Positions 23,235 to 49,714 of a stretch of 64,000 nt of DNA are shown one piece after another (within the stretch, counting starts at the first letter, position 1; each line of letters opens with the position of its first letter). A program made the translations under genes and the position numbers. This DNA comes from Rhynchobatus australiae (taxonomy: Eukaryota): assembly GCA_034780895.1 (NCBI GenBank), contig JAUZTB010000087.1, positions 6,091,264-6,155,263 on the forward strand, written 5' to 3'. Under the pieces are notes generated by a model. That model had not been told where the DNA came from. It was given only the letters and a program-made list of their open reading frames with translations, and made no database searches.

Positions 23235-25709
23235 ATGGGATATTGTAGAATATATTGCTTGAGAAAATGGCATCTGCTATACTGTCTATTCTCCTTCTGC
23301 GGTCTAGTTTCGGGACAAATTCGTTATTCCATTCCCGAAGAACTGCAACTTGGCGCCTTTGTTGGTAATATCGCAGACGATATGGGTTTGGATGTGAAAG
23401 AACTCTCAGCTCGAAATTTTCGCGTCGTTCCGGGTCTCGGGAAAAAATATTTGGACGTAAATTTAGACAATGGGATTTTGTTTGTGAAGGAAAATATTGA
23501 CAGAGAACTGCTTTGTGGGTCGAGTCTTACTTGCCTTTTATCAATGGAAGCTGTGATTGAAAATCCTTTAAATGTCTATCGGATTGAAGTGGAGGTTTTG
23601 GATATAAATGACAACGCTCCCAATTTTCCAAAGAGTCAGTTCCGTTTAGAAATCTTTGAAGTGGCGGCCCCGGGTGCACGTTTCCCCCTTGAGTGCGCTT
23701 ACGATTCGGACGTGGGAACCAACTCCCTACAAAACTATCGCCTGGTTGGAAATCAATACTTCGCGCTCGACATTGAGACCCGCAGTGGGGATGAGAAGCT
23801 GCCAGTGCTAACGCTGGAGAGGGCACTGGATAGAGAGAAAGAAGCAACTCACAAGTTGCAACTAATTGCCGAGGACGGCGGGATCCCTCCGAGGTCCAGC
23901 ACTGCTGAAATACTAATCGCAGTGCAGGATGCCAACGACAACTCTCCCGTGTTCTCCCAGTCAGTGTATAGGGTCAGCCTGAATGAAAATGTGCCCAAAG
24001 GAACACTTGTTATCAAGCTTAATGCGACTGACTTGGATGATGGTTCTAATGGGGATATTGAGTATTCCTTTACAAGCCATACATCGGCAACAGTACGTGA
24101 ACTGTTTGATCTGCATTCCAAAACAGGGGAAATCAAAGTGAAGGGGAATTTGGACTATGAGGTAAATAGTGCCTTTGAGATCAATGTTCAGGCAATGGAC
24201 AAAGGCTCAGCTCCAGTACCTGCGTACTGCCGTGTTCATGTGGATATTATTGACGTGAATGATAACGCTCCTGAGGTGATGGTGACCTCTCTGTTCAGTC
24301 CAATTGGCGAAGGCTCTCCCCCGGGGACTGTGATAGCGCTGGTTAGTACTACAGACAAAGACTCCGGAAAAAACGGTGAGGTTGATTGTCAAATCCCAAA
24401 TAACCTTCCATTTAAGCTGAATTCGCCCTTAATAAATTATTACAAGTTGTTAACCGTGGACCAATTGGATCGGGAAAACATCCCCAAGTATGACGTCACT
24501 CTACTATGTCGTGACTCAGGCTCGACTCCTCTTACTTCCAAGAAAACCATGCAGATCGAGATCTCAGATGTAAATGACAACTCACCTCGTTTTAGCCAAT
24601 CCTCGTACACAGCCTATGTGATGGAGAACAACGTCATCGGAGCCTCTGTCGTATCAGTGACAGCCACAGACGCTGATTTGAACCAGAATGCTAAACTATC
24701 ATTTTCCATTCTGGAAAGTCAGGTCCAGAGTGAGTCTGCAGCCAACTACGTTTACATTAATTCAGAGAATGGAATCGTTTTTTCTCAAAGAAGTTTCGAC
24801 TACGAGGAACTCAAAAGCTTCAATTTCCAGGTTCAAGCACAGGACAGCGGAATCCCACCACTCACCAGCAACGTTTCGGTGGACGTTGTTATCCTTGACC
24901 AGAACGACAATGCCCCAGTGATTCTGCACCCACTACCTGAACGTGGGTCAACCGTCCTAGAAACAATGTCCCGCTCTGCGGAGCCGGGTTATCTGGTTAC
25001 TAAAGTCTCTGCCATGGATGCTGACTCGGGCCAGAATGCTCGCCTCTCTTATCAGATTGTCCAGGCTACTGACCCAGGACTTTTCACCATTTCACCTGAC
25101 ACGGGCGAAGTGTGGACCATCCGTCGCCTGGTGGAGAAGGATGCGACGAGGCAAAAGTTAACGATTGTGGTAAAAGACAATGGAACGCCGCCGCTTTCAG
25201 CTTCCATGACCATCAGCTTGTCCGTGGTCGATGGGGATGCCCAGCTGTTTTCTGGTGTCACAGAGTTGGACGATGAGGCGGCTTTCAAGTCTGCGTTGAG
25301 TTTTTACTTGGTGATATCTTTGGGGGCAATTTCTTCCATCTTTCTGCTGATCTTAATCATCCTCGCTGTGAAGGTCCATAAAAGCAGGAGTGGATTTGGT
25401 GTTTACAGTTGTTACGGGGACATCTGCTGCTGTTATAAATCAAGACGCTCTCTCAGCGGCATTCAGAAAGCTAGCAGAAACATTCAGATACCTCCGAATT
25501 ATGTGGAGGTATTCGGAGGCGATCCGCTTTCTCAAAGCTTTCGCTATGGAACCAATTCAACGATAGCTTCTACCAAGAGAGATTACCCGATTCCCAATAC
25601 GTGTAGTTCGTCTGCAGTGACAAATAAAGGCGGGGGTGGGCCTAATGAGAAATGCAAATACCTGCACTCCCAGGCTCCTGAAAATTGTAGAAACTCTGTA
25701 AACACTGAG
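23235..25709 (+). CDS. PCDH: Clustered protocadherin variable exon V6
   Basis: ORF 23235-25754. Six ECs, TM, Cys cluster and [20 protein letters not shown]. Phase-0 donor GAG|GTGAGG at 25709/25710. Confidence 0.95.
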
Positions 25710-29158: not shown

Positions 29159-30124
29159 GTACGTTCCTCATAAAGGTGGCAACATATATCACAAGATCCA
29201 AAATCCAACCGCAAAAAATAACTCCAAATGATGTAAATGATAGGACCACTGTATCTGCTGAGGTGAGGCATACTGTGTAGAAACATCCTCCAGAACTATT
29301 ATTTGACCTGTTCTTATTTTTGACTCTCTCAATGGCAGCAATTATGAAGCAGAACTTCTGCGCGTAGCATGATTAAAATAATTAGCCCTAAGAAAAGTCT
29401 CCCTCCCTTCTCTGTGGGCAAGTCCACGAGTGCAAGTTATTGTTGTAATGTTTAGGAATGCAAAACGAGAAAAACATAATTGTTCTTCCTTTGCATAGAT
29501 TGTGTTGTATGGACTGCACAGCGTGCATACTTTTTTTTTGAAGAAGCTTTACTCACGTGGTGCAATGATGCACAGTTGCCAAGAGAGCGACTGAAACTGA
29601 AGTACATAAAATGAACAATTTCACTGTTTATTTGAGAAAACTTCTGAGTGCATCAAGTTTGGCAACAATAAGTGTTTGGAAAGATAGTTTGTGAATCCCA
29701 CCTGATGCCAAGTAATCATTCCACCTTGAATTAAAATAAAGGTTTTTTTGAGTTTAATTTAAATAGTAAGGAATAATAAAATAATCATAATAGTAACACA
29801 ACAAGTCAAAGATTTTGGTTTATCTCCATGAAGCGTAGATTGGACAACCAAGGCACAGTAAAACGAAGTTCAAAGAAATTGCTGATTCACTTGATTCAAA
29901 TACAAAATATTTTCATGAAAGAAAACGTATATAAGCAAGTTGAGATGAGCATAGTTATGATGCTGCAGCATTTATTGGATTCAAAACCTACATTATTTCT
30001 AGCCATCTTGCCGTGGATTATTATATTTATGGTTATTTTGTTGGCTCTGAATTATACTAAAATAAAGTTAGAAGAATTTGGGTTTACCTTGGAACAAATA
30101 CATACTATGTTTCAGAAGTAGTAA

Positions 30125-30690
30125 GCAGGATATTGTGGTTTGCTTTATTATAAGAAGTAACTTGAAGTATTGTGTGCAGTTCTGGTCGCCACATGATAGG
30201 AAGGATGTGGTTGTGCTGGAGAGAGTCCAGAGAGATTCATGAGGATGTTGCCTGGATTGGAGGACTTTAGTTTTGGGTATAATTTGGAAAGGTTGGACTT
30301 AATTTCCCTGGAGTGACTGTGACTGAGGGGTGACATTATGGTGTTGTATGAAAATATAAAAGGCATAGATGGGGCAGATGGCTGGAATTCTTTACCATAG
30401 AAAGCTTATTGAAAACAAAAGGATATAAAGTGACTTTCGATGAGGATCTGAGGNNNNNNNNNNNNNNNNNNNNNNNNNNNNNNNNNNNNNNNNNNNNCCA
30501 GAGGTGGTGAATGGATCAGAAATAATCAGTATGTTCAGGAGACATTCAGACATTAAGATACTTGCAATAGGCAAGGCAAAGAAAGATGCAGACCTAATGT
30601 GGATAAATGTGATTAGTATAGATGGCCAAAGAAGCCTGCATGGATGTGATGGGCCGAAGGGCCTGTTTCTGTGCTGTATGATTCTTTGTC
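30125..30690 (+). mobile_element. CR1 LINE 3' fragment
   Basis: TGTGTGCAGTTCTGGTCGCCACAT..AGGAAGGATGTG..CTGGAGAGAGTCCAGAG..GGATGTTGCCTGGA encodes a decayed CVQFWSP..KDV..LERVQ..RMLPGL; tail GGGCCGAAGGGCCTGTTTCTGTGCTGTA. Confidence 0.8.
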
Positions 30691-33600
30691 TCTGTGGCTT
30701 TAAGATTATTAGAATATTTGGCAGCTTAAGAGTTGCCTGGTCACCTCTGACACCGAGGAATTCACCTAGTCAACCAATTTGGATGACAAAGTCATGCTTC
30801 TGAATAAAGGGGGTAGGAAGCCCAGCAGCAGCATGAAATCTCTACTTGTTCCAGAAATCAACCTTGAAATCCCAGGGGAAGTACAACCAACAGAAGAAGG
30901 TGTCTTGGATGTAAGTGATAATGTACCAGAGCCTTTCTGGAGATGAAGTACCTTTTGAAATGGCTGAATGTGCTGGTCTGTCCCATCAGGAGCACAATTC
31001 TCTGAATAATGATCCAAGTGGATAATTGAGCACCATCCTAACAGCAAATGCAATGAACTGAAATTTTACTCCCTCCTGTAATTGAACTGGTCTTATACAA
31101 ATCAGCCACTAAATGGATTTTGGGCTGCAAAATCATTTATATCAGAGTGTCGAATGAAAAATGGATTATTCACCCCAACAGTGTTACCAGCCTTCTGAAA
31201 AATACAGGTGTGAATGGCAACTTACAAAATTTAAGTAATGCTTTTATCACATCAGCATGCTTTGGCATAATGCCTGCATTCATATGCTCTGAGACCTTAC
31301 AGCAGAATGCATACTGATCCACTCCTTTTGAACCATAGAGTGGAAGTAATCTTAGACATCCCAGCAATTATTGTGTTAGAAACCTTCACCCATTCTTGAT
31401 TTGGATTTATCAGTACCTAACAAATGTGTGTTATAGGCATTGATATGTTTAAAGGGTGATTGTAGTTTGTATGTGCAGGGGAACATCTCATTTCCAGAAT
31501 GTTTCATTCTGGTCCTCTTGCCTTATTGAATGTAGTGCATTCACATTGTTAGCTTGACCCTCAGACAATTTTGTTTCCTGGAACATGAACAGTTTAAATA
31601 ATCCAATTAAGTGCAACAAGGNNNNNNNNNNNNNNNNNNNNNNNNNNNNNNNNNNNNNNNNNNNNNNNNNNNNNNNNNNNNNNNNNNNNNNNNNNNNNNN
31701 NNNNNNNNNNNNNNNNNNNNNNNNNNNNNNNNNNNNNNNNNNNNNNNNNNNNNNNNNNNNNNNNNNNNNNNNNNNNNNNNNNNNNNNNNNNNNNNNNNNN
31801 NNNNNNNNNNNNNNNNNNNNNNNNNNNNNNNNNNNNNNNNNNNNNNNNNNNNNNNNNNNNNNNNNNNNNNNNNNNNNNNNNNNNNNNNNNNNNNNNNNNN
31901 NNNNNNNNNNNNNNNNNNNNNNNNNNNNNNNNNNNNNNNNNNNNNNNNNNNNNNNNNNNNNNNNNNNNNNNNNNNNNNNNNNNNNNNNNNNNNNNNNNNN
32001 NNNNNNNNNNNNNNNNNNNNNNNNNNNNNNNNNNNNNNNNNNNNNNNNNNNNNNNNNNNNNNNNNNNNNNNNNNNNNNNNNNNNNNNNNNNNNNNNNNNN
32101 NNNNNNNNNNNNNNNNNNNNNNNNNNNNNNNNNNNNNNNNNNNNNNNNNNNNNNNNNNNNNNNNNNNNNNNNNNNNNNNNNNNNNNNNNNNNNNNNNNNN
32201 NNNNNNNNNNNNNNNNNNNNNNNNNNNNNNNNNNNNNNNNNNNNNNNNNNNNNNNNNNNNNNNNNNNNNNNNNNNNNNNNNNNNNNNNNNNNNNNNNNNN
32301 NNNNNNNNNNNNNNNNNNNNNNNNNNNNNNNNNNNNNNNNNNNNNNNNNNNNNNNNNNNNNNNNNNNNNNNNNNNNNNNNNNNNNNNNNNNNNNNNNNNN
32401 NNNNNNNNNNNNNNNNNNNNNNNNNNNNNNNNNNNNNNNNNNNNNNNNNNNNNNNNNNNNNNNNNNNNNNNNNNNNNNNTAAGTGCATTGAATGAAAGGA
32501 GGCTCTCCGGTACAAATTATAAGTGTGCACGAGGCAGATTTTATCATCAGTCAAGTCAGAAGCAAATTTTTAAAGATTCCAGTCAATCTTTTGTTCAACT
32601 TAGTATTGTGTCATTTTTTAAATAATATAAGAAAAAGGCATTGTTGATAATACCCTGCCATTAAACAATAGCATCAAAAAGATGGCATTTTATTTCATGT
32701 TCTCAGGATGTATAGATTGAGTTTCTTTGTTTGGACTGCAGGTTTTAACTATGTGTTGGGTTATTACAGAGTTCAATAACTATATACTGTAGTTTGTATC
32801 ATTCCAAAAACCATACTAAATCAATTAAATGCTGATTTTGTCACAAGGTCAATGGGAAATAGAAAAATGCATGTTTAGAGTTGTGAATTTCTAAGCATGA
32901 ATCATTCTCAGCATATCTGAGTATTAAATATAGCATTCAGTTTCATAAAATTCGATTTAATGCCATGTGATTGTTTCACAATATCTTTATAATGGATTGC
33001 ATCTTTTATTTTCTATTAACACCAATACCCCTCTGCAGAGTGATGTAGTATTAATACTCTTTTGTCTATAAGAGAATGCATAAGGGCATGGGTACTCAGT
33101 GCTGAGTAAGTAATTATATTGAATAATGAAATGATTTTGCAGCTGAGTCCTTGGGTCTGGGCTTGATGATTTAAAACATGTTGAGATTAAATTCTGCGAA
33201 AAGCTGTTAATAAGGATGAACTGGACTGTGGAGACCAAAATTCATGAAGAAATAATAAATCTCACTTTTTTTGTGATTACAGATGCTTGAATATTGTACC
33301 ATGCAATATAAGAACAGATTTAGCATATTAGAATGGACTTTGTATACCAATTTGGTCTTTTATAATATTTTGAGTACAATCTCAGGACAGTGTCAGCTTT
33401 GTATTTTATAGATCAACTCTACTATTCAGGATGGTGTATATCTAGAATCTTTGTCTTGTCTGTCATTCAATGAGATCATACCTGATCTGTAATCTAACTT
33501 AAAATACCCATCTTTAACCCAAAGCCTCAATACTTATGTTAAGCAAAGGTATAGCCATCTCCCATTTTAAACTAATAACTATCCTAGCATCAATTGCCAA

Positions 33601-36114
33601 TTTGCAGAAGAGCATTCCAAAATTCTATTAGCTTTAATACATAAAATTGTTTTTTAACCACCCCTGAACTCCTTCTACTGATTTTTATATTATGTCCTCT
33701 CTATCAATCTTTTTAGTTCCTTTCATTACCTTTAATCAAATCACCCATAAACTTTTAAGTCCCACCCAGTGAATGGAGTCCCACTTAGACATTCTTTTCT
33801 TTATAATTTAACCCTCAGGTCCAAATATCATTAAAATAAAGTTTTATTGTTTGCCTCAAACAGGACACCTTGGTTTTATTCACCTTTTATTATCTTGTGT
33901 AATTCTGCATATTTTAATATTTATGTACATGGATCCCTTACTGTCTTTGAACCCTAACTCTTTCTTGCTTCATGCATTGACTGGGCAGGCAGGGATACAT
34001 TGCTGTAACACCAAAGCTGGATGTAGTAGATTGGATCATAATGTAACAGCTAAAGCTGGATGTTTACAACTGATTTGCAAATCGCAGAATATGTTGTGAG
34101 AATCACCTTCTCTTGCTTTCAATGCATTAAGCTGAGAGAGAGTATGTCTTGTACCTTCTGGTGTGAAAGCATCAACTAGCTGTTGATTTCATCCCCCCTC
34201 ATGCTGGAAGCAATTCATTTTTAACCAGACACCTGTAATTTCCTTGATCTGGCATTTTTTTTTTTGGCTTCTGTCCAGTTCCCTAGCAATGTACAGAGTC
34301 TTTGCTTTTAAGTGCTTCTAATGAAATGTAGTCTAAATTTAAAAAATACATCCTCTGCCTCAATGGCAGTGTCCTATAAATATTGCCTATATAATTCCCA
34401 CCCTCTGTCAATGTTCTTAGTCACTCCTTTTACATTTGTGCTTTTATGATAGTTTTAGAAAAAAATAACTAATGATCGTTTGGAAAATTGCCTGCTATGC
34501 AATAATTCAACTATTTTATTTATTAGCACTGTCAGTATGATCCACTCAGCTATGGAAGCAGCTTTTGGTCAATGTGTATCACATATTGCGACACTGGGAT
34601 ATGTGAACCTAACAGCATATTTTTTTTCTCCTTAAAATACAAAGGGCTTTTCAAAAAGCATCTGGTTATAATTGGCAACATAAAACATGGGAAACACTGT
34701 TCTGACTCTATATTCTATTGTTGTGAAAGACAAAGTATGCAAGTCAACTTGTCACATGTATCATTTATGATAGATTTTTGTTCTATTCATAATCATCACC
34801 TCCATCCAAACCTATCAAATAGAACACATCCAATATCAAAACTTAGCATTTCAAGAATTATTAAATATGTGAAATACAAAGATGAAGGGAAAATAATAAG
34901 TTAAAGAACTATTGCAGTATTTGACTCCAAATTGAATGACAGAATCATATAATTTTACAGCATGGAAGCTGGCCATTTGGCCTACTCAATCCATGCTAGC
35001 TTCCTGCAAAAGCGATCCAGATAATCTCATTCCCTAATCCTTTCTCAATAACCTTGCAAATTTCCTTTCAAGTACTTATTCATCTTTCTTCTGAATGCTG
35101 TGATTGAGTCTGCCGTACTGCTCCCCAGAAGTGCATTCCAGATGTTGCTGCTTAAATATTTTTCTTTCTTGTCACTTTGGGTTCTTTTATCAATCATATT
35201 CATGCATTGTCATCTGGTTCTTGCCAATGAAAGCAATTTTTGTCTCTCCACTTTGTCTGGGCCCTTCTTGATGTTAAATACTTCTGTCACATCCCCTCTT
35301 ATCTCTGTTCCAAGGAGAACAACCTCAGTTTGCTCTCCACATGCTAAAGTCTGTTGACTTTGGAATCATTCGAGGAGGCAGAATGACTCAGATTCTGCCT
35401 GGTAAGAGGAAATATAAGACAACTTTGGAACATGGGAACCACATAACTGTAAGAGGAGTATGATAGAAGTCTTTGAAATCTTCAAAGAGTGGGACAGAGT
35501 GGATAAAATGTCTATTTATGGTAGTTGAGTAGGCACAAACAAGGAACAATAGATATAAAATTTAATGTANNNNNNNNNNNNNNNNNNNNNNNNNNNNNNN
35601 NNNNNNNNNNNNNNNNNNNNNNNNNNNNNNNNNNNNNNNNNNNNNNNNNNNNNNNNNNNNNNNNNNNNNNNNNNNNNNNNNNNNNNNNNNNNNNNNNNNN
35701 NNNNNNNNNNNNNNNNNNNNNNNNNNNNNNNNNNNNNNNNNNNNNNNNNNNNNNNNNNNNNNNNNNNNNNNNNNNNNNNNNNNNNNNNNNNNNNNNNNNN
35801 NNNNNNNNNNNNNNNNNNNNNNNNNNNNNNNNNNNNNNNNNNNNNNNNNNNNNNNNNNNNNNNNNNNNNNNNNNNNNNNNNNNNNNNNNNNNNNNNNNNN
35901 NNNNNNNNNNNNNNNNNNNNNNNNNNNNNNNNNNNNNNNNNNNNNNNNNNNNNNNNNNNNNNNNNNNNNNNNNNNNNNNNNNNNNNNNNNNNNNNNNNNN
36001 NNNNNNNNNNNNNNNNNNNNNNNNNNNNNNNNNNNNNNNNNNNNNNNNNNNNNNNNNNNNNNNNNNNNNNNNNNNNGGCTTTTTGTGTTCATTTCCAAAC
36101 TTCATATTTCTGGG

Positions 36115-36285
36115 GATACAAGCGACTGCAGATGCTGGAATCTCGAGCAAAGAACAAACTGCTGGAGAACCTCAGTGAGTCAATCAGCATCTCTGGAGGG
36201 AGAGCCCTGGTCGACAGGTCAACCATGCCTTTGCCACCACAGATGCTGCTTGACCTGTTGAGTTGCTCCAGCAGTTTGTTCCATG
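36115..36285. mobile_element. Penelope-type inverted-repeat element
   Basis: ACTGCAGATGCTGGAATC..AAACTGCTGGAG..CAGCATCT followed by CAGATGCTGCTTGACCTGTTGAGTTGCTCCAGCAGTTT. Confidence 0.6.
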
Positions 36286-36459
36286 CTTCATGTTTGTGAG
36301 TATTGCCTGAGATTCATAATGACAATGGCCCATATTAAATGTTGCGTAAAGTCTTGTTTGGAGTAATTTGGTAAACTCAGTTGATCTCTTCAAATATTTG
36401 GCGGCTGCTTTAAACCGTTTAGAGCTTAACCTCACTCCAACAACAGACAGCAATGTTTT

Positions 36460-36830
36460 TTTCATTCATTTGCAGGATGTGGTCATTGCAAGCAAAAGCA
36501 ACATTAATTACACATCCCTAATTATTCTTGAACGAAGTGGCTTGCCTGGCCACTTCACAGGGCATTTTGAAGTCAACCACGTTGCTGTGGGTCTGCAATC
36601 ATTTATAGGCCAGACTAGTTAAGGATGGCAGATTTCCTTCTGTGGAAGTTACTAATGAACTAGCTGCAGTTTTAGGAAAATCCCGATGTTTTAAGGATAT
36701 CATTACCCATGCTAATTTTTGTTCCAGTGATTGCTGAATGAACTGAACTTAAATAACCTGAGTATTATGATAGGTTTGAATTGATTCCATTTGATCACCA
36801 GTGGCCTGTTGAGTTATTGTCCAGTAATTA
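36460..36830. mobile_element. Old interspersed repeat (SINE-like, unclassified)
   Basis: ATTCATTTGCAGGATGTGG..CATCCCTAATT..GAAGTCAACCACGTTGCTGTGGGTCTG..GGCAGATTTCCTTC pattern recognised as a common elasmobranch repeat; family not established. Confidence 0.45.
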
Positions 36831-37319
36831 GTCCAGCCTGCAAAATGGTGTCAGTCAGTTAAGCTGAGAAATAATGGGTTCAGTTTCCCCATTTGTGCTT
36901 AGGTGAATTGATTTCAATTAAGGTAGTAACAGAATTAATAAAAGATGTCTGAGAATTCCATGTCCGTGGCGTCAGGAGGGAAATACAATTAGGTTGCTTC
37001 CCAATACCTCTTGCTGGAAAATATGTGGATATCAGTGAAAATAACATTAGGTGAGGTGTTAACGCTACCCCAAACTAAATTAAATGGCATGTGCTCCCTT
37101 GGTATACTCATAGATTCATCATTCAAGGAGGTTATTGGGCCCAACAAGTTCCTGCCAGCTCTTTATTGGCCAATGCAGTCAGTCTCATTCCCCTGCTCGA
37201 TTGCTGTACCCTGCATATTTATTTCTCTCAAAAGACTATCTAATTTCCTTCTAAAATCATTGATCACCTCCACTACCACTACCGTTTTTGGGAACCAATT
37301 CCAGGTCATTACCACTTTA

Positions 37320-37783
37320 ATATTGGTATTGGTTTATTATTGTCACTTCTACTGAGGTAGTGAAAAACTTGTCTTGCGTACCGATTGTACAAGTCAATGC
37401 ATTACACAATGCAGTTACATTGGGTTAGTACAGAGTCCATTGATGTAGTACAGGTACAGAGTAAAGCGTCACAGCTACAGAGAAAGTGCAGTGCAATAAG
37501 GTGCAGGGTCACAACAAGGTAGATTGTGAGGTCATAGTCCATCTCATAGTATAAGGGAACCGTTCAATAGTCTTATCACAGTGGGGTAGAAGCTGTCCTT
37601 AAGTCTGGTGGTACGTGCCTTGAGGCTCCTATATCTTCTACCTGAGGGAAAAGGAGAGAAGAGAAAATGTCCCGGGTGGGTGGGGTCGTTGATTATGCTG
37701 GCTACTTCACCAAGACAGCGAGAGGTAAAGAGTCCAAGGAGGGGAGGCTGGTGTCTGTGATGCACTGGGCTGTGTCCACACTT
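37320..37783 (-). mobile_element. Rex1/Babar-like LINE 3' fragment, inserted in an older CR1-like element (~37110-38330)
   Basis: Minus ORF 37544-37765: SIINDPTHPGHFLFSPFPSGRRYRSLKARTTRLKDSFYPTVIRLLN; 3' tail is the inverse of the 38330-38990 copy. Confidence 0.75.
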
Positions 37784-38329
37784 GTAAGAAAAGTTTGTCC
37801 TTTCATCCCCCTATATCTCCTGCCAAAAGCCTTGAATCTGTGTCCCAAATCATTTTACCATCAGCAAATAGGAAAAGCTTTGATTTTGTCAACCTTATCT
37901 AAACTTCTCATAATTTTGTTCATTTGTATTGAATCTCTCCTAGGCTTCAGGGCAAGCAATCCCAAATTATCCAACCTAGCCTTACAGCTAAACTCCCTCA
38001 CCCTGTGTACCATGTTGGTAGATCTCCTTTGCATCCTTTCAAGAACCTTCTCATTCTGTCTAAAGTCTGATGACCAGAACTGTTTGCAATGTTGTAGTTG
38101 TGGCTTAAGCAGAGCTTCAGAAAGGTTCAGCTTTACTCAATACTTCTTTTTGTAAAGTCCAAGAAACATATATTTTGCTAACTTCACTCTCAATATATCC
38201 CACCTCCTTCTAACACCAGAAACCCTCTGGTTCCTCTGTTTTTGCACATCTTTAGATTTGTGCCAATAACATTGTATTGCCTCTCCCCATCCTTTCTGTC
38301 AAGATGCATCACCTCTTACCCCAAGGTAC

Positions 38330-38990
38330 ATCACCAATAGCATGCCCTGGTCTAACCACATAGATACCATGGTCAGGAAAGCTCAGCAGTGCCTTCATTT
38401 CCTCAGGAGGCTAAAAGAATTTGGCAGTACCAATGCACCACCGAAAACATCCTATCTGGATGCATCACGGCTTGGTATGGCAACTGCTCTGCCGGGGGCT
38501 GCAAGAATGCAGAAAGTTGTGGACACAGCTCAGCACATTATTGAAACCAGTCTCCCTTCCATGGACACTGTCTATTCTTCTCGCTGCCTTGGTAAAGCAG
38601 CTAGCATAATTAAAAACCCCACCCACCCCAGACACTCTCTGTTCTCCCCTCTCCCATCAGGTAGAAGGTACAAAAGCCTGAAACCATGTACCATCCGGTT
38701 CAAGGACCGTTTCTATCCCACTATTATAAGACTATTGAACTAGTTCCCTAGTACAATAAGATGGACTCTTGACCTCACAATCTACCTCATTACGACCTTG
38801 CACCTTATTGTCTAGCTGCACTGCACTTTCTCTGTAGCTGTGATACTTTATTCTGCATTCTGTATTGTTTTACCTTGTACTACCTCAATGCACCATGTAA
38901 TGAATTGATCTGTATGAACAGTAAGCAAGACATGCTTTTCACTGCACCTCAGTACATGTGACAATAATAAACCAATTCCAATTCCAACCT
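38330..38990 (+). mobile_element. Rex1/Babar-like LINE 3' fragment
   Basis: ORF 38342-38743: WSNHIDTMVRKAQQCLHFLRRLKEFG...LPSGRRYKSLK...FYPTIIRLLN; ends in AATAATAAACC(AATTCC)n. Confidence 0.8.
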
Positions 38991-40699
38991 CACAAATCTC
39001 AATATCAAATTCCATCTATTACTTTTCTGTTCATCCTGCTAGCCTTTTATAATCAACTGGTATCATCCTCCTATTTTGCAACTCTTGCAGATTAGGTATC
39101 AAAGGAAAATTGTGATTATTTTTTCCCCTTGTGATCCATTACCTAAGTCAATGGTCCCGATACTGATCCATGCAGGACACCATTGTCTACCATCCTGTCT
39201 GATAAACAACCATCTACCCACCTCACTGTTTGCAATCCTCAGGCCAATTTTTATCGCTGTGAACACCGCCCCTCCTATTCTCAGAGAATCAGTTTTACTA
39301 TCAGCCTCTTATCTGAAATTTTGTCAACTATTAAGTAATGATGTGATGTACAAGGGAAGAGTTTTTTTAGAAAGATAGTAGTAATAAAGAGCTCAGGAGT
39401 GCACATCACATCTGAAGGAATTAATGTTTTATGGTGAGATATAAAAATAATTAGGAAAGGAAAGATCTCCCTACTCACAAAGAACTTGTTAAGTGATTGC
39501 AATCTCAAAGAGAATGTGTAGAAAACACTACATTCGAAATGTGAGACTACGACAGAGGAAAATGTGACATCGCAACTCAATGCTGTAAATGAGATCCAAG
39601 GCACAACAATAGAAACTAAACCTTCAGCTCATAAAGTCATGGGATGTTTACAGAATATAGAAGGCCATTTGGCTCATCAAATCTATGCTGGTTCCAAACA
39701 GAGCAAAAGCTAACTTTGACAACACAGCACTTCACTGGAGTACAACTTAAACCAATAACCTTGTAGATTTAGAGGTAGAAATGACAAACTGCTGTGACCA
39801 CCTTATAAACAATAGCATACAGATAGAATCCTAACAAGGAGTCCCCACTACCATGTGTTGTCACAAGTCTGAGAAACAGCAAAAGGTGGGGCTTAATTAT
39901 CTTGCATGTAGAAATCAGAAGGGGAATAGAACGACTCATTCATACAAAACAGAAGGAGGACAGGGGAATATTATGTCTGTGCCNNNNNNNNNNCTCTTTA
40001 AGAGGTTGGGAGTCACCCTGTCTTCTGTCATGGTCCTACCTTTTTTAACTTCTCAAGAATTTGCAGTTCTCTTTTCGAAGTTGTTATAGAATTTGTTTCC
40101 ATCATCCTCAAAGGCACAACATTCCAGGACATAATCTGCTCTTGCATCAAAAGGGTCTCATCTGCCTTCTGGTTCTTTAGCCTGTTATGATACAAATGTT
40201 TATTAGTTATTGACCCTCATGCCGATGGAAGCAGCTTCTTCCCCTCTACCATCAGATTTCTGAATGGTCCATGAACCCATGAACACTACCTCGTTATCCA
40301 TTCCTTTTGCACTATCTGTTTATTTTAGTAATTTATTACAATTTTATGTCTTTGCACTGCGCTGCTGCTGCTGCAAAACACCAAATTTCATGTTGTTCAT
40401 ATATAAATCTGATTCTGATTCTTATTTATACTGTAAAACCTTCCTTAATTTTTAACATTTTGATTAAGTTTTTCCTTGAATTTTCTTTGGTTCCAGTGAG
40501 AATTTCCCAGATTCTCTAGTCTCATTTAACTGAAAGATTTCACGCTCAAATCATTCTAAAATAAAATAATCAAGTGAATGAATGGAAGACATCCTAAATA
40601 CCATTTTGAATTTAATTGCAACAAAGTCTCTGGTTGGTATGCAATAAAATGATGGTTATATTACTGGTTTGGTACTCTTACTCTGTCAAAGTAGAGATT

Positions 40700-41012
40700 A
40701 CCATGTAGACAGAGGAAAACAACATCCCTATTAATGTCTGGAACACTGGGTCCATGACCAAAATGGAGAAAAGCATTCAGGATGGTATTAAGAACCTTGA
40801 GTCCAGGCATTGGGACCACATAGAAGTCCTGAAGAGTGCACCACCTCTCAAACTAGTCACTGACTAGGCTCATCCTGGACCTCCTGATCCAGAAGCAGAG
40901 GAGTACTCTGTTCCAACTTTAGTCTCATTAGCCACCTCAGAACCCACAAAACTGGACTGGAAGCAAGTCATCCTCAATGCCAAAGTGATTATCTAAGAAG
41001 AAGAAGAAGACT
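40700..41012 (+). mobile_element. RTE-like LINE 3' end remnant
   Basis: CTCATTAGCCACCTCAGAACCCACAAA encodes LISHLRTHK, a C-terminal zinc-finger tail, followed by a (GAA)n tail. Confidence 0.5.
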
Positions 41013-41291
41013 GGAGAAGCAAACTGAATTCATGATATAAAGGCATGAGTTCAAATCCCACTACTGTAGCTGGAGAACACAAGTTCAGTCTGTCCAGAAT
41101 TATAAACTAACATATTGTAATAAAAACCCATCTGATTCACGAATGTCCTTTAGAAAAGAAAATCTGATCTCCATATTTGACCTATATGTAACTCAGGACC
41201 CACGTCAAAATGGTTGACACTTAACTACTGGCTGAAATGGCCCAGCAGGATAGGCAACATATGCCATCAATGGCAATACTTTGTGGAATAG

Positions 41292-41340
41292 AAATATAAT
41301 TGGGAGTAAATATAATTGGGAGAAATATAATTGGGAGTAA
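41292..41340. repeat. Three tandem copies of a 15-16 bp unit AAATATAATTGGGAG(T)
   Basis: Directly visible. Confidence 0.9.
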
Positions 41341-42469
41341 ATTCTTTGTGTGAGGACTAATCAATGCTTGGAGTGAACTGTCAGATTAGATAGTGGAGGG
41401 GAAAACATGGCATCATTTCAAAATCACTTAAATGCAACACTGAGGAGTTAAAATAATTCAAACTGATTTCTTCATCCATAATAATCCTCAATTTTTTTAA
41501 AGAAAACTGCAAAGAAAATCATGCCTAAGAGTATCAAACTGAGAATTACAATTCCTTTCAATGCATTGCCAAATGAAATTTTCTATGATCTCATTTGCTA
41601 TCTCAAGAAGGTTGAATTAATTTCTGTATGCATGCAATGCATTTTTGTCACAGATTGTTTAGCATAATCATATCCCTACAGATCCTATGGGGTAGGGTTA
41701 ATCTATATATATTCATATTGAACTCAATTTGAATAGCTAAGCCTGTGTGCATTACACTCTTTTCTAGTTCACCCAATTAAACTCCTTCCCCTCATTCTGT
41801 TGATACCTAAAACAATCTGTAAAGTGGTCATTAATCTAAGGATGCTTTTGATTTGCTAGGCATTGAAAAGGGGAGCCGAAGTAAGGCATTGATACAGGCT
41901 TGCTGGAGTAAACTTCAAATGTTTCTTTTAGCTTAACGTTTTTAATGATTAACAAGTTCCCCACTAATGTAAAGAAAGTTCCCTGATAGAAAGCAGATGT
42001 TCCCAATTACTTTATTCTTTGGTAAAAGTTGACTGAGAATTGGTAGGGGTCAGGACCGGAAAGCTACGTTTCCTGGTCCTAAAGGCGCAGTGATAAAATG
42101 ATAATAGTTCAAATGGAGACCACACACATACAACTTAAACCGTCTCATTGGCAGGCAAATGACATTGGTACAACGAGTTACTATAGAGTAATACAAACAT
42201 ATGCTTTAATTTTCATTGCATAAACATTTACTCTTTTATTGCTTATCCTGAGTGTAATCCTCAAACTAGCTAGTGAAAAAATATACTGCACATCAGTCAG
42301 CCCCTATACAGAACGTTTTAGAAATACGATAATCAACTGAATTGTTATGTTAATTATGGCTTTCAATATTTTCAATTTTCATGGCTTTGTCACTCAAATA
42401 AGTTACTTCAGCTTGTTTCTCTGGATGATTCACTTATTCCGAGAAAGAACATTGCTCCTAGAATCATGG

Positions 42470-43145
42470 GGAAAACAGAAACAGGTCCTTTCTGCCCACA
42501 TCATCCATGCCAACCATGATATCTATCTGCGCTAATCCCATTTACACGCATTAGGCTCATATTCCCCTGTGCTGTTCCAGTCCAAGTATTTACCCAAACA
42601 CTTATAAACATTGTAATTGTAACTGCCTCCACATCTCCTCTGGTGGCTTGTTCCAGATAAGCACCATCCTCTGTATGAAAAACTTGCCCCTCAGATCTCC
42701 TTTACATTTCTCCCCTCTCACCTTAAACCTGTGCCTTCTAGNNNNNNNNNNNNNNNNNNNNNNNNNNNNNNNNNNNNNNNNNNNNNNNNNNNNNNNNNNN
42801 NNNNNNNNNNNNNNNNNNNNNNNNNNNNNNNNNNNNNNNNNNNNNNNNNNGTCTATCCAATCTCTCCTTGTAACAGCAGCCTTCCATTCCAAGCAACATC
42901 CTGGTGAATCTCTCTTGCACTCTATTGCTACCAGCAGCCAACATAATCAAAGATCCCACCAACCTTAATATTCTCTCTTCTTCCCACTCCCATCAGGCAG
43001 AAGATGCAAAAGCCTGAAAGCATTTACCACCAAGCTCGAGAACAGCTTCTATCACACTGTGATGTGACAACCAGAACTGCACACAGTTCTCTATGTGCAA
43101 TCTAGTCAATGTCTTGTACATCTACAACATGACATCCCAACTCTT
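42470..43145 (-). mobile_element. CR1 LINE 3' fragment with a nested Rex/Babar piece (~42930-43065, +)
   Basis: Minus ORFs RVQERFTRMLLGMEGCCYKERLDR and HRFKVRGEKCKGDLRGKFFIQRMV are the CR1 ORF2 C-terminus. Confidence 0.75.
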
Positions 43146-43379
43146 ATACTTTCTACCTGCTTTATGCTGTGGTTTTTAAGCTTTATGGACTGCAGCATAA
43201 TAACAACCATTTCTGGTAGTTTCCTGTCACTCCTAAAACTTGGCACTTCCTGGCATGATCTCTACATTACTCCATAGCATCCCTTTCTTTGGACTATTCC
43301 AAGATATTTGGGCTAAACTCTCCTGGAGGCACCTGTTGTTCAGCACTCCCAGGATAACAGGATCACCAATAGCTTGCCC

Positions 43380-44030
43380 GGGTCCAAGCATGCAAATGCC
43401 ATGGCTAAGAAAGCTCACCAGTGCCTGTACTTCCTCAGGATGCTGAAGAAATTTGGCATGTTCCCTTTGACACTCACCAACTTTTATTGATACACCATAG
43501 AAAGCATCCTATCTGGATGCATCACGGCTTGCTATGGCAATTGCTCTGCCTGGAAGCACAAGCAACCGCAGAGATTTGTGGACACAGCTCTGCACAGCAC
43601 AGAAACCAGCCTCCCTTCCATGGACTTTATCTATACTTCTCGCTGCCTCAGTAAAGCAGCCTGCATAATCAAAGACCCCACCCATCCTGGACATTCTCTC
43701 TTCTCCCCACTCCCATCAGGCAGAAGATACAAAAGCCTGAAAGCATGTACCACCAAGCTCAAGAACAGCTTCTATCCCAACAGTTCCCTAGGCTGATAGG
43801 ATGGACTCTATACTTCACAATCTACTTCATTATGACCTTGCACCTTATTGCCCACCTGCACTGTACTTTCTATGTGACTCTTTACTCTGAATTCTGTATC
43901 ATTTTACTTTGTACTACATCAATGCACTGTGTAATGAATTGATCTGTATGAATGGTATGCAAGATAAGTTTTTCACTGTACCTCAATACAAGTAACAATA
44001 ATAACCAATTCGAATTCCAATTCCAATTCA
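43380..44030 (+). mobile_element. Rex1/Babar-like LINE 3' fragment
   Basis: ORF 43578-43796: IIKDPTHPGHSLFSPLPSGRRYKSLKACTTKLKNSFYP; highly similar to 38330-38990; (AATTCC)n tail. Confidence 0.8.
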
Positions 44031-45569
44031 TAGTGACATACACCAAACTGTGATAGCTGCCAGATAAGTAATTTAGCTATCCCCAATCTTGAGCCAGTCC
44101 CCCATTAAGTGGCAACACCCTCAATGCTCCCTTATCCCCACTGCTAATCTCCAACCAGTCTCCCCAGTCCCATGGGAAATCCTGGTACTGACTTCCTGGA
44201 TCCACATGATTGTTCTGGTCCCAAATCCCCTTTTCAACAATGCCACTTCCAATCCATAATCCTGAAAAAAAAACCACTGATCCTAATCTACAATCCCTAC
44301 TCCAACACAATATCTGTCTGTACACCAATTTCATCCACACAATGCACATCCAATTTCTCCCTCCACCATCTCCCATCCCCTCAACAACCACCATCCCTCT
44401 CTCCCCACCCAAGTCACAGAACTGGCACAAATGGACATGTAGCCATCAGTCTTGGAGGCCCAGTCTCCAGGAGTGCCATGTGGCACATTATTGGCTCCAC
44501 TTAGACTCAAGCCCAAGGCAGTCACAGGCAAAATGTGGTGGATCTCTGAAACTCTCTCCCACAGAGGTTTGTGGATGCTAGATCATTGAGGGATTTTAAA
44601 GACGAAGTAGCCATTTATTGAAAGATCAGTGAATTGAAAGCTATGGAGAACTGGCACAGAAGAGGAGATAAGGCCAGGGGTAGAACAGCCATGATCATAA
44701 TGAATGGTGGGGTAGGACTGAGGGACTGGGTGGTCTACTCCTTGTGTACTTCTTGTGTTAAATGTCCCAGCTACAGAGGCTACATTTTTTTTAAATTACA
44801 GATTTGAATTTAAATTCCCAACTGCCATAACTGGGATTTGGAATCATGACTTCAGATTAAATGGTATATAATACTAGTTGCTAAAACCAGTAACTTAACC
44901 ATTTTATTACCATTTGAAAATAGCTTTTCCCATAGAACCATAGCACCATAGATTTCTTCATTTTATTCAAGGAAAGTTTTATTCTGCCAACATTCCACTG
45001 ACACGGCACACAGCTGCAGTTCACCCACCTACAGCAAGGTGCCTTCCCTGCGGAAAGCCATATTCTGGCCGCACTCAACTCTGTCAGTGCAGGAGATGGG
45101 AAGCAAAAGGGGAGAAGAAGGGAGAACAATGCTCTTCCTCCCTCCCACTTTCCCTGTTCCATTCCCTAATGCTGAATTGCAGGCACAGCAGATATCCTGA
45201 GATCACACCCAACTGCTCATTTCCTCTCAGCTGATATTTCACTGCACAGTATACCTTGTTTCATCAAAACAGAGAGTTATCCAGTGAAACCACCCATATC
45301 TATGCCAGTTCATTGAAAGATTAGTGCCACTCCCAACTCTTTAAAATAGCCCTGTAAATTTTTACTTTTAAATATATATCACATTCCCCTTTAAGAGCTG
45401 CTATTAATTCTGCTTCTTCTATTTTTTCAGACAATCCACACTAGAACATTGTAACTCACTGATGTCACAACCAAAGAAATTCACCTCACCACCCCCTCCA
45501 TCCCATCCCATCTGCTCTTTTTGGCAGTCAGAGCCAGTTCCTGGATAATGAAAGGGTTCCATTCCTAAG

Positions 45570-45765
45570 AAGGTTTAGCTTCTCCCAAGTGCTCATCTGA
45601 GTTTAATTCCATCTGCCATTCCCTTGCCTGCTTTTCCAGTTGATCTGGATTCTGCTGTAGTCTCAGATAACCTTTTTCACTATCCACTGTATCACCAGTT
45701 TTGGTGTCATCTGCAAATTTATTAATCACACCACCCACATTCTCTTCCATGTCATTGATATATAT
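45570..45765 (-). mobile_element. CR1 LINE reverse-transcriptase core fragment
   Basis: Minus ORF 45565-45750: VGGVINKFADDTK..VDSEKGYLRLQQ..WQMELN, containing the RT catalytic FADD motif. Confidence 0.8.
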
Positions 45766-46818
45766 GTGAGAGTATGCTCCTTACACAGAGAGTGATTGTG
45801 ACCTGCAAAGTTGGCACAGACTCAATGAATCTAACCCTCCTCCTAATCTGCATCAGATCCATGACTTGTCCTGTTATTCTATGATGTAACAGGGAATTAT
45901 TTCTAGTCGGAATACTGTGCTACTTACAGTTTCTGATGTTTTCATGTGCCTTCTGCCCTTACCATTCAGGGTGGTAGAGGTTGTGGGTTTGTGAGGTGCT
46001 GTCAAATTAGCATTTGTGAGTTGTGGCATTTCAATTTAATGATATACACTGCAGCCACATTTTGCCAATAATGTGGGAAGGAAACATTGGGGAGTGGATT
46101 GATAACCAATAAAGTGAGTTGCTTTGTCTGGGTTGGTGCTGATTTTCTTAAGTAAGTGTTGTAGCTGCAGTCATCCAGTTCAAGTGGAGAGTATTTCTGT
46201 GCTCCTGACTTGAGTCTTACAAATGGTGCAAAGGTTTTAGTGGTGTCAGAAGATGAATCAATCACCACAGGATACACTATCTCTGATCTACTTTTGTAGC
46301 TACCAGATTTACTGGGCTGGTCTTATAATTCTGGCCAATGGTTATGTCTAGAATGTTAACAGTGAAGGATTCAGTAACTGAGTCTAGAAAATATGATTAG
46401 ACTCTCATTTGCTGGAGAAAGTCATTGCTTGGAACTTGCTTAGTGCAGATTTTAGTGCTGGGGTATGGATGTCAGTGCTGCCATGATATAAAACCATCAA
46501 TTTCAGGAGCATAGCCAGTAAATCTTGGGGAAGAAAAGAAATTTCTGAAAAGATTACAAGACATAAGCAGAGATTGTAAGGTGAAATCATCTTAAAAGAT
46601 GATACTCATGGTCTAGGAGAGTCCAGACACAATGCGTTGTGACTGCTGGAAGCGCATCTGCAGTCTCTTGTGTCTCCACTGGGTTGTGATTGTCCACTTC
46701 CCTCCACAGATGGTGCCTGACCCGCTGAGTTCCTCCAGCTGTTTGTGTATTGCACCAGTTTGTGCTCCTCTCATTTTCATGCATTGCTCAGTGACCATGC
46801 TTCTTGTTGTTTCTGCAG

Positions 46819-47048
46819 TTCCCAGTACCTGGAGGAGGAAGGCATACAACGTGAAATACAATGTGAAGTTCAGCGCGAAGTCCAGCGGGACGTGCAGCGT
46901 GAAGTACAGCGTGATGTGCAGTGTGATGTGCCACGAAATATTCAACGCGACCTTCAGCGCGATGTACACTGTGACGTGCAGCACGTTGCTGAAAATGATC
47001 CTGGCGGACCAAGGAAACCCATGTGTGCAAGACCTCCAGCTATCCCAG
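46819..47048 (+). CDS. PCDH: Clustered protocadherin constant exon 2 (shared cytoplasmic domain, alpha-like) with a tetrapeptide repeat insertion
   Basis: Polypyrimidine acceptor TTCTTGTTGTTTCTGCAG| and donor CCAG|GTTAGT; 230 bp, phase 2 to phase 1 like the 89-bp mammalian constant exon 2. Translation SQYLEEEGIQR...ENDPGGPRKPMCARPPAIP resembles human PCDHA constant exon 2 (SVHLEEAGILRAGPGGP...ATP). Confidence 0.85.
46844..46987 (+). repeat. 12 x 12-bp coding minisatellite, consensus (V/I/L)-Q-(R/C)-(D/E)
   Basis: IQRE IQCE VQRE VQRD VQRE VQRD VQCD VPRN IQRD LQRD VHCD VQHV; units differ mostly at third codon positions. Confidence 0.9.
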
Positions 47049-49714
47049 GTTAGTGCTGGACAAATGGCAACATATGTGTCGGAGACTAACTCTCAGTTGA
47101 GTCAAAGCAATAATCTTCCTCAGACCTTCTCTTTACAGTCATGACAGAAAAACAGGATCATTGAAAAACTAAGTTGAGTGCAAAGAGATATGAGAAAATA
47201 GTTTGTTTAATAACTAAAGAATAATGTTGAGTGAATATTAGTTTAANNNNNNNNNNNNNNNNNNNCCCCGTCTTAGTTGAAATATGAAATCATCTAAAAT
47301 AAATCATCGGCAAAAGAACTTTATACATCCAGTTAAACAGCATGAGCTCATGCCTATTATTGAAAGATAAATGTTGTTTCACGTGGTTTATAAGGAAACT
47401 CAAAAAATGTTATGTGGGGTAAAGGATAGCAAATGAGAACCATCTGAAATGTGTTCTGCCATGTGAAAGAAAGTTTGTGTCGGAAACCATTTTCAGATAT
47501 AAGGGTTCACAGCTTAGAAGCAATAAAGCATTTGCCATCTCTGTCATTTGGGTTCCCACCAATCTGAAGTATACCTTACTGATTACCTTGAGATTCCTTT
47601 GAGATGCTATAATCATTGTCCCGGAAATGTTACAGTCAAGAGACAGCCTTAGGTCAATGAGACTGATGGCAATATTGCCAAGTAATTTCAAAGTGTTGTA
47701 TGAAATTCCTGTATTTCACTGCATTTATTAACAGATTAAAAACTGACAAATTAAAAAATGCATTGCAAATTTCCCTGACATTTATTTTATCACCAAAAGA
47801 TTGGAACTAGATAGTGTGAAGAAGCTCAGAAAAAGAACTGATCTTGCCCCAAATGGTGAAGGGATAAGGTTCTTTGCAATTCTCCATTGATAGGCTTGTC
47901 AGGAATTCAGCATCTGGATTTGTAAATTCTGTAAAAAAGGCATGAAACAAAGGTTGTTCAACCAATGGGATTAAGAGTGAGAAATAAAAAAAACACATTG
48001 GAAACATTTAATAAAAAAGAAAATTGGTCATATTTTACAGTAATAAAATAATGCAGTTGCTGGAAATCACAAAGACAGAAAATGCTGGGAATCCTTCAAA
48101 GGACAGAATGTATCTTATGAGAGAAATAGAGTTAATTGTTTACTTTGAACATTTTATACATCATTGGCTTGAAATGATATTAACTTCTTTATTTTCTCCT
48201 CACTTACTGTCCAGTCTGTTGAGTATTCCTGGCATTTTCTGCTTCTTTCTATATTTTTTAATATAGGTCAGATTAATATCCTTCTGAATTAATTGAATTC
48301 ATTTTCAGGGCCAGTAAGGTTATTCAGCAACAAACGTACACTATTGAAGTCACTAACCTCTGAATACAATGGCCAAATTTTTTCAGCTGCTTTTAGTGTA
48401 GATGGTGGGAAACACCTGAGTATAAGGCATCACAATTATTTCAGTTCTAAATCCATCTGTATAACTGCAACGATGTACTCTGAGGAGGAGTAAGATATCT
48501 CAAGAGACCAACTTTGAGAGCTATATGCTAAACTGCTCAGATATGGGTGCAAGAGGTTGCTGTCTGTTTTGCCCTGTGATAACAGCAAGTATTAATATTA
48601 TTACAGTAAAATATAAAACAACTTGCGTTTTGGCCCCTGGAACTAGTGAGTCACTAAACTATAAATACTTAATGCTTTCATTTCAGTTGCTCTCGTGTTA
48701 TTAGTGTAGACAGTCAGGGATCAGACATGAAGCAGCTAATTGTCTTTGTTAAAGTAGTNNNNNNNNNNNNNNNNNNNNNNNNNNNNNNNNNNNNNNNNNN
48801 NNNNNNNNNNNNNNNNNNNNNNNNNNNNNNNNNNNNNNNNNNNNNNNNNNNNNNNNNNTTGTTAAAGTAGTATTAAACATGTTGAACATTTGTACATGAA
48901 TCTCTCACTGTGGGGGCCTTTCCAAGGGAAACTGGTTGTTCCTACAAAGAACAAACAGGATGTAAGATAAGCTTGGATTCATTCCAAATGTTCTTCCTTT
49001 CTGATAAATAAGAGAACATGGATCCGCTGACATCTTGTTAATAACTTGGGAAATAGCAGATGAAAGCAACAGCAAGGCAGAAGGATTTTGTCTTCAGTTC
49101 CCTGAAGGTAAACTCACCAAATAAATTCTAAATTTGGAAGTAATTATCATCCAAAGTTTTGTGTGATATTTTTGGAAAGAGCTCACTGTATAGTGAAGTC
49201 CAGGATAAGTTAGGATGACAGCATTCTGCAAGACAAAATAGAAACATATGTTGCATTTCCTCTTCTTGGGTTTTATCTGTATGTCAGCTGGAACAACTTA
49301 GGGGCCAGACTAGGGATATTCACTCCATATAGTAAATAGTATAAACTATAGCTTTTTCCAGGCGAACTTCCCATTATGCCATCTTCTCTTCCTCAATGGG
49401 GAAAATGTATAATGTTAGAAATGTAGGTTTCTGTGGCAAATGCCACATTGCAAAGCTAACCAAGAAGAAATCTCACAATTTCAGCTCGAACTTTGGCAAT
49501 GGTTTTTCGTTTCTTTTTTTTTACAATTAGTCCAATCCAACATATCTATTTAATCTCCTAGATGAGTATTACAGAAGTATTCCTGTTCCCATTTGTTAAG
49601 AAATGAAATTACATTGTCTTAGAAGCGGGAAGTGTACAAACCATCATATTCAACTACTAGCCAATGGCATTGCAAAAATAGGAAACAAACTGTGACAAAC
49701 AGTTGCTCTCAGGT

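Follow-up and report, generated by a model that had tools for sequence, protein, structure and literature searches.

In the window (the whole stretch of 64,000 nucleotides that was analysed), seven variable-exon open reading frames of 793–893 amino acids, arranged in tandem and 2.4 kb long, lie upstream of a 230-bp exon that is almost certainly constant exon 2 of a protocadherin-nu subcluster. The variable exons are as follows (a slash marks the splice junction).

1659–4103, forward strand: nu-like variable exon, phase-0 donor GAG/GTGAGG
5832–8279, forward strand: nu-like variable exon with an in-frame stop at its end, no consensus donor found
11612–14077, forward strand: nu-like variable exon, phase-0 donor
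15956–18400, forward strand: nu-like variable exon, phase-0 donor
19561–22005, forward strand: nu-like variable exon, 95% identical to sawfish P0007, which is spliced to the same constant region
23235–25709, forward strand: nu-like variable exon, 95% identical to sawfish P0011
26846–29158, forward strand: last variable exon, with a short tail, donor GAG/GTACGT, 94% identical to sawfish P0015 with the same end residue

Orthologues of these exons carry Pfam Cadherin and Cadherin_C_2 domains. Six of the seven exons have an in-frame GAG/GT donor, and phase-0 splicing to shared constant exons is seen in the orthologues, which use the same constant region; the three with close sawfish counterparts (94–95% identity) match isoforms that use this region, which places the source of the window among rays near sawfish. 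In a comparison with gamma-C and Callorhinchus milii nu only, all seven are nearer to nu (58–69% identity) than to gamma-C (44–49%). The last variable exon is spliced right after ..QNCCYE, an ending kept in rays and sharks. The exon at 5832–8279 ends in ..SNNCRV and a stop codon, and its skate orthologue runs on to ..NIGE and is spliced to the constant region; the exon may have come to encode a beta-like isoform by itself, lacking the tail that the others share, or an assembly error may be responsible.

No constant exon 1 (59 bp expected) was found in the readable part of 29159–46818, where the best score was 27 of 104. This interval of 17,660 bases contains 1,528 N, and three N runs could hide 59 bases, so that constant exon 1 may lie inside one of them. 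Constant exons 3 and beyond were not found in the readable window and could lie beyond it. Within the intron, a 16-bp tandem repeat (3.2 copies, 94% matches) is located at 41292–41342, and a very-high-copy interspersed element, probably a SINE, occupies approximately 46640–46755, stopping about 65 bases short of the acceptor of exon 2. The summed contig depth of the latter reaches 854,000 in X1, the single public run containing the stretch, and six partial copies are found elsewhere in the window. An Rfam scan of the window gave no matches. The features of the constant exon are listed below.

46799–46818, forward strand: polypyrimidine tract and AG acceptor, ending TGCAG, read from the sequence
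46819–47048, forward strand: constant exon, assigned as exon 2 of the protocadherin-nu subcluster, 230 bp with 76 full codons
46820–46843, forward strand: N-terminal flank SQYLEEEG, ray–shark identity 90%; a predicted helix begins here
46844–46903, forward strand: repeat units 1–5, the helix-prone half by prediction, with 10 of 20 sites invariant
46865–46876, forward strand: 12-bp unit with an exact in-frame tandem duplicate in one X1 contig
46904–46987, forward strand: repeat units 6–12, the degenerate half, for which Pro/Gly and Cys were counted over the compared exons
46988–47047, forward strand: proline-rich C-terminal flank with the partly conserved PXXP stretches PGGP, PRKP and PAIP
47049–47054, forward strand: splice donor GTTAGT, read from the sequence

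The mammalian counterpart of this exon is 89 bp long. As originally predicted, the 230-bp exon is cleanly bounded, with an AG acceptor after a pyrimidine tract, a GTTAGT donor and an open frame; its phase is 1 + 76 × 3 + 1, and open codons start at 46820. Reading frame 1 is excluded by stops, and reading frame 3 is open but does not match the phase of the orthologues. The prediction of a 12-unit VQR(D/E) repeat is correct in the number of units (12 units of 12 bp at 46844–46987: IQRE, IQCE, VQRE, VQRD, VQRE, VQRD, VQCD, VPRN, IQRD, LQRD, VHCD and VQHV), three of which contain Cys as stated, but only 4 of the 12 are exactly VQR(D/E), and units 8–12 are degenerate. The lag-12 identity of the repeat is 0.67, compared with 0.32 ± 0.04 (maximum 0.47) in 10,000 codon shuffles, and Tandem Repeats Finder (TRF) reports a period of 12 with 6.8 copies and a score of 73.

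Identity of the shared exon

A search with the exon peptide matched 96 proteins among 131 candidates, comprising 94 cartilaginous-fish protocadherins and two weak chance matches. The closest are sawfish isoforms at 96% identity (3 of 76 residues differ between the sawfish exon and the window), and the remotest matches of the family are elephant-shark protocadherins nu8, 9, 13, 15 and 17 at 53%. Among the named subcluster entries in this search, exon 2 matches only nu. In all 94 chondrichthyan protocadherins, which are mostly automatic annotations, constant exon 1 is joined directly to exon 2 behind many different variable exons, and a search with the whole constant region revealed no isoform that lacks exon 2 among 90 matches of 466 candidates, all of them already known exon-2 carriers. 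The exon is thus shared, as had been proposed. The orthologous isoforms also have constant exon 1 and the last exon in common with C. milii nu. Based on the exon-1 junction (94/94), the nu matches and the sawfish-like variable exons, we conclude that the exon is almost certainly constant exon 2 of chondrichthyan protocadherin-nu, present whenever a nu isoform extends into the constant region. A 218-residue protein, P0020, joins exons 1–4 on a contig of 2,134 bases, from which a spliced transcript can be inferred in a skate-like animal.

The five C. milii nu entries (UniProt B0YN92, B0YN93, B0YN97, B0YN99 and B0YNA1) have the same exon, with the same flanks, VQR(D/E) repeat and exon 1, and a last exon that is 84–88% identical to that of elasmobranch long isoforms. 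They differ from the window in having 11 units and one Cys rather than 12 units and three Cys, and they represent only the isoform made of exons 1, 2 and last, whereas sharks and rays add an optional exon 3 and an alternative exon 4. RefSeq isoforms from Pristis, Amblyraja, Leucoraja, Scyliorhinus, Carcharodon, Rhincodon and others, automatically named ‘protocadherin beta/gamma/10-like’, have the orthologous exon at 70–96% identity; these misleading names conceal one nu subcluster. In the accessible parts of PMC2764143 and PMC4978886, the nu subcluster is attributed to Yu et al. (2008) and is described as specific to cartilaginous fishes, with no bony-vertebrate orthologue.

UniProt has contained the gene, together with an orthologue that bears the repeat, since the work on the elephant-shark cluster, which limits the surprise. 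In the literature searched we came across no account of the repeat, although Yu et al. 2008 (PNAS) or its supplement may mention it, and the nu constant sequence was not found in the searchable supplementary text of PMC4978886. The repeat is therefore a real and apparently uncharacterised feature of a known gene. It merits attention because a constant domain is the one signalling output common to all isoforms of a protocadherin subcluster.

Exon 2 is followed by four annotated tail forms in elasmobranch nu proteins, found in 82, 8, 3 and 1 of 94 sequences (exemplified by P0011, P0010, P0025 and P0040, respectively). The optional exon 3, of 37 amino acids, is the most conserved part of the tail, with 94% ray–shark identity, and a C-terminal end with a WIRS motif is present in only 11 of the 94 fetched nu proteins. 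In the database isoforms P0003 and P0035, constant exon 1 is spliced to a site within cadherin repeat 6, so that the transmembrane segment is skipped.

Other searches of sequence space gave few leads. A Pfam scan of the exon alone found no family, and the best ESM Atlas score was 0.80, to unnamed clusters. A PDB sequence search with the skate-like constant region returned four matches, to unrelated repeat or designed proteins and over a stretch outside the repeat. When the exon was compared with 1.84 billion representatives using phmmer, one of the 50 matches belonged to the nu family (P0009). Pfam scans of five of the 49 others found domains in three (Ig, MAP1B and Roquin); these three are unrelated proteins, and we treated the non-nu matches as compositional and not as relatives.

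Age, unit number and selection

We compared unit number across sharks, rays and a chimaera, as had been suggested, using one exon per species (15 named species, P0020 and the window, 17 rows in all). Fifteen of the 17 rows, and 13 of the 14 named sharks and rays, have 12 units; the extremes are Callorhinchus with 11 and Rhinoraja with 14, and none of the 15 named cartilaginous fishes has lost the repeat. Because Callorhinchus carries it, the repeat is older than the split between chimaeras and elasmobranchs, approximately 400 million years ago, and it is not a new expansion of this lineage. The idea of a ‘length-tunable’ segment is likewise weakened by the narrow range.

X1 covers the introns continuously, at about 3% divergence, and therefore behaves as DNA of a close relative; it contains no splice joint. 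One X1 contig (depth ~7) has an exact extra copy of window positions 46865–46876, which brings the repeat to 13 units and indicates that slippage is ongoing, in whole units and in frame. With this relative, and a skate that has two extra units, the original dismissal of recent slippage was too strong. Unit 6 (46904–46915) is VQRD in the window, but contains Pro in all 14 other twelve-unit exons (VPRD, PLRD, APRD and others), which suggests that unit 6 reverted in this lineage or was converted by one of its neighbours.

Several comparisons point to selection at the protein level, in agreement with the original prediction. Differences between units amount to 0.28, 0.13 and 0.69 at the first, second and third codon positions, and pS between units is 0.80 (saturated) versus a pN of 0.25. 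That the units had diversified mainly synonymously holds at the level of bases, with 26 of 37 mismatches to the DNA consensus of the unit at third positions. At the level of codons it is qualified by the 136 of 211 differing codon pairs that are non-synonymous (mostly D/E and I/V), since a change at the third position often exchanges D and E or I and V. The CpG observed/expected ratio is 1.5 in the repeat versus 0.14 in the intron, and mutable Arg codons are therefore being kept. Between the window and the single exon-bearing X1 contig (depth ~7; 2 of its 9 differences have no listed position), the exon has one substitution in 230 bases, which is synonymous, compared with 28 in 899 intron bases (Fisher p = 0.018), counted with 105 upstream intron bases that overlap the high-copy element excluded. 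No amino-acid substitutions were observed where 5.5 were expected (p = 0.004).

At a ray–shark identity of 0.65 (0.72 in units 1–6 and 0.58 in units 7–12), the repeat ranks below every other part of the constant region. Exon 1 stands at 0.88, the two flanks in exon 2 at 0.90 and 0.79, exon 3 at 0.94 and exon 4 at 0.69. For the ectodomains ray–shark identity is 0.76–0.78 (6 pairs) and for the distal variable tails 0.41–0.54 (4 pairs). The low identity of the repeat counts against a precise binding surface.

Within the unit, position 3 holds only Arg, Cys or His (111, 49 and 20 of 180), position 4 is Asp or Glu in 146 of 180 and position 1 is Val or Ile in 146 of 180; Lys is absent from the repeats of all 17 sequences. 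Judged from the codons, Cys and His at position 3 are what would be expected from CpG decay of CGN (CGY) Arg codons. All 15 exons with twelve units have Cys in units 7 and 11. Elasmobranch repeats have 2–4 Cys and the chimaera repeat has one, the extra Cys lying in unit 2 in rays and in unit 4 in most sharks. Pro and Gly account for 1 of 340 residues in units 1–5 versus 49 of 480 in units 6–12 (17 sequences); counted by site, the difference (1 of 20 versus 8 of 28) is borderline (p = 0.06), and the species are not independent.

The nu tail beside alpha and gamma constant domains

The gamma constant domain (P0148–P0151) is related to that of nu at both ends. It shares the exon-1 motif PNTDWRxSQ (52% identity over 25 residues), the last-exon stretch DYxxNVYIPG...KKK(S/T)GK aligns with nu at 39–43% over 60 residues, and the constant regions of both match Pfam Cadherin_tail (PF15974). 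In contrast to nu, the gamma domain has no repeat and no similarity to the C-terminal flank of nu exon 2, to which the gamma-type exon 2 stretch ..FDTEMLQAMILASAS does not align. The three gamma tails examined have no FITFGK motif, and the gamma constant region comprises 124 residues compared with 163–167 in the comparable nu isoform.

The alpha constant domain is not known to have such a repeat. It was compared with nu by two motifs: FITFGK (WIRS), which also ends the long nu isoform, recruits WAVE in Pcdh-alpha, and PXXP motifs, present in the nu exon-2 flank, are reported to be specific to alpha and not gamma, according to the accessible part of PMC6047886. Searches with exon 2 and with the constant-region sequence returned no alpha protein, and Pcdh-alpha is stated to be absent from the elephant shark in the part of PMC4978886 available to us.

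The original prediction noted alpha-like flanks next to beta/gamma-like tails. This puzzle dissolves when the exon is placed in a separate nu subcluster, and membership of this subcluster replaces an alpha/gamma chimera as the explanation. From the distribution of these motifs we infer that the mix of features probably marks a separate, old paralogue and not a chimera. Because the nu tail mixes alpha-type (WIRS, PXXP) and gamma-type motifs, it bears on the nature of the ancestral constant domain.

Structure and possible role of the repeat

The hydrophobic moment of the 48-residue repeat peaks at 90 degrees (0.70, period 4.0) and is only 0.16 at 100–103 degrees. At the helical angle of 100 degrees it falls from 0.75 over 12 residues to 0.29 over 24 and 0.16 over 48, and a straight helix would therefore be amphipathic only locally. 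The description of the segment as amphipathic is consequently valid over about three units and fails over the full length. Structure prediction with AlphaFold of the exon alone gave a helix at residues 2–34 (pLDDT 72–88 over residues 1–30; mean 66.8, pTM 0.34), a break at a proline and then a weak second helix. For the whole constant region of the skate-like P0020, disorder was predicted (mean pLDDT 45), with one low-confidence helix at 8–42. The repeat has 8 positive and 10 negative charges in 48 residues, and is slightly negative overall. A two-copy complex prediction of the exon peptide, in which the alignment was unused, scored 0.00 and says nothing either way on binding.

We hypothesize that the repeat is a spacer under compositional constraint, disordered over most of its length but with a first half prone to helix formation, and that it would place the distal motifs farther from the membrane; we put the probability of this reading, which draws on sequence comparison and structure prediction, at roughly 0.55. 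A 12-bp unit may have expanded by slippage within an ordinary, short second constant exon before chimaeras separated from sharks and rays. Afterwards, purifying selection would have preserved the reading frame, the make-up of V-Q-R-D/E and a size of about 12 units, while rare whole-unit slippage would give 11–14 units and CpG decay would convert some Arg codons to Cys or His. The product would be a spacer in the cytoplasmic tail that the isoforms share, mostly disordered and highly charged but close to neutral overall. Together with the conserved end of exon 1, the first half of this spacer could become helical for short periods, and this helix may fold against a partner or make the linker stiffer. 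Such a spacer would determine how far the membrane-proximal motifs lie from the distal signalling motifs, namely the Pro-rich flank, the strongly conserved but optional exon 3 and, in the long isoform, the WAVE-binding FITFGK.

The best placed of the alternatives, although unlikely, is that the repeat has no role of its own and is an old, tolerated insertion, from which selection purges frameshifts and aggregation-prone changes while length drifts slowly. Its conservation, the lowest within the constant region, would fit this, as would substitutions that track mutation bias (R to C/H, Q to P) and the occurrence of similar period-4 repeats in unrelated proteins (Ig-domain, MAP1B-like and Roquin-like). 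The lack of amino-acid substitutions relative to X1, where 5.5 were expected, argues against it, together with a ray–shark identity that exceeds that of the distal variable tails (65% versus 41–54% in 4 pairs) and the retention of the repeat in all 15 named species. By analogy with arginine-enriched mixed-charge domains, the repeat could also be a self-association module that clusters or condenses nu tails beneath the membrane. Its first half would be prone to form a helix, lipidation of Cys would be optional, and its strength would be tuned by unit number through slippage, so that the proteins would be clustered from inside the cell. We regard this, too, as unlikely; if true, it would be a mechanism undescribed for alpha or gamma constant domains in the literature searched. 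The likeness to such domains lies in the fixed spacing of RD/RE pairs, one every four residues under the restrictions on positions 3 and 4 described above, in the use of Arg without Lys, with Arg codons that retain CpG, and in the predicted disorder. Arg/Asp dipeptide repeats condense in a length-dependent manner, according to the accessible part of bioRxiv 10.1101/771592. The nu repeat differs in being diluted with Val and Gln, slightly acidic and part of the cytoplasmic tail of a membrane protein; only 18 of its 48 residues are charged, and it is short compared with pure dipeptide polymers. Moreover, the absence of Lys is also expected by mutation, because CGN codons are two steps from Lys, and unit number is nearly invariant.

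Two further readings invoke defined structures, and both are very improbable. A folded amphipathic helix bundle, or a coiled coil that oligomerises the tails, could draw on the helix predicted across units 1–6 and on the hydrophobic residue at every fourth position, with its high local moment. A periodicity of 4.0 is, however, beyond the range accessible to coiled coils (about 3.33–3.9 residues per turn, with an observed extreme of 3.8, according to the available part of PMC4786415), so that the coiled-coil check of the period-4 segment was negative. The loss of moment over 48 residues, the frequent Pro in units 6–12 and the helix pLDDT below 50 in the full tail of the skate-like sequence also speak against a bundle. 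The least probable reading is a scaffold of spaced Cys residues, palmitoylated or metal-binding, that would anchor the tail at the membrane. The invariant Cys in units 7 and 11 and the further lineage-specific Cys of rays and sharks may hint at such a scaffold, but Cys occurs only where CGY can decay to TGY, alongside His (CAY), the chimaera has a single Cys, and the surroundings contain no basic or hydrophobic membrane patch.

Returning to the spacer that we favour, the near-fixed number of 12 units, the invariance of half of the sites in units 1–5 and the constancy of Cys in units 7 and 11 exceed what a plain spacer would seem to need, as judged from the aligned exons. The 48-residue insert has been kept in 15 of 15 named cartilaginous fishes and is under measurable selection, and the natural variants with 11, 12, 13 and 14 units form a ready series with which to address the question of spacing versus self-association.
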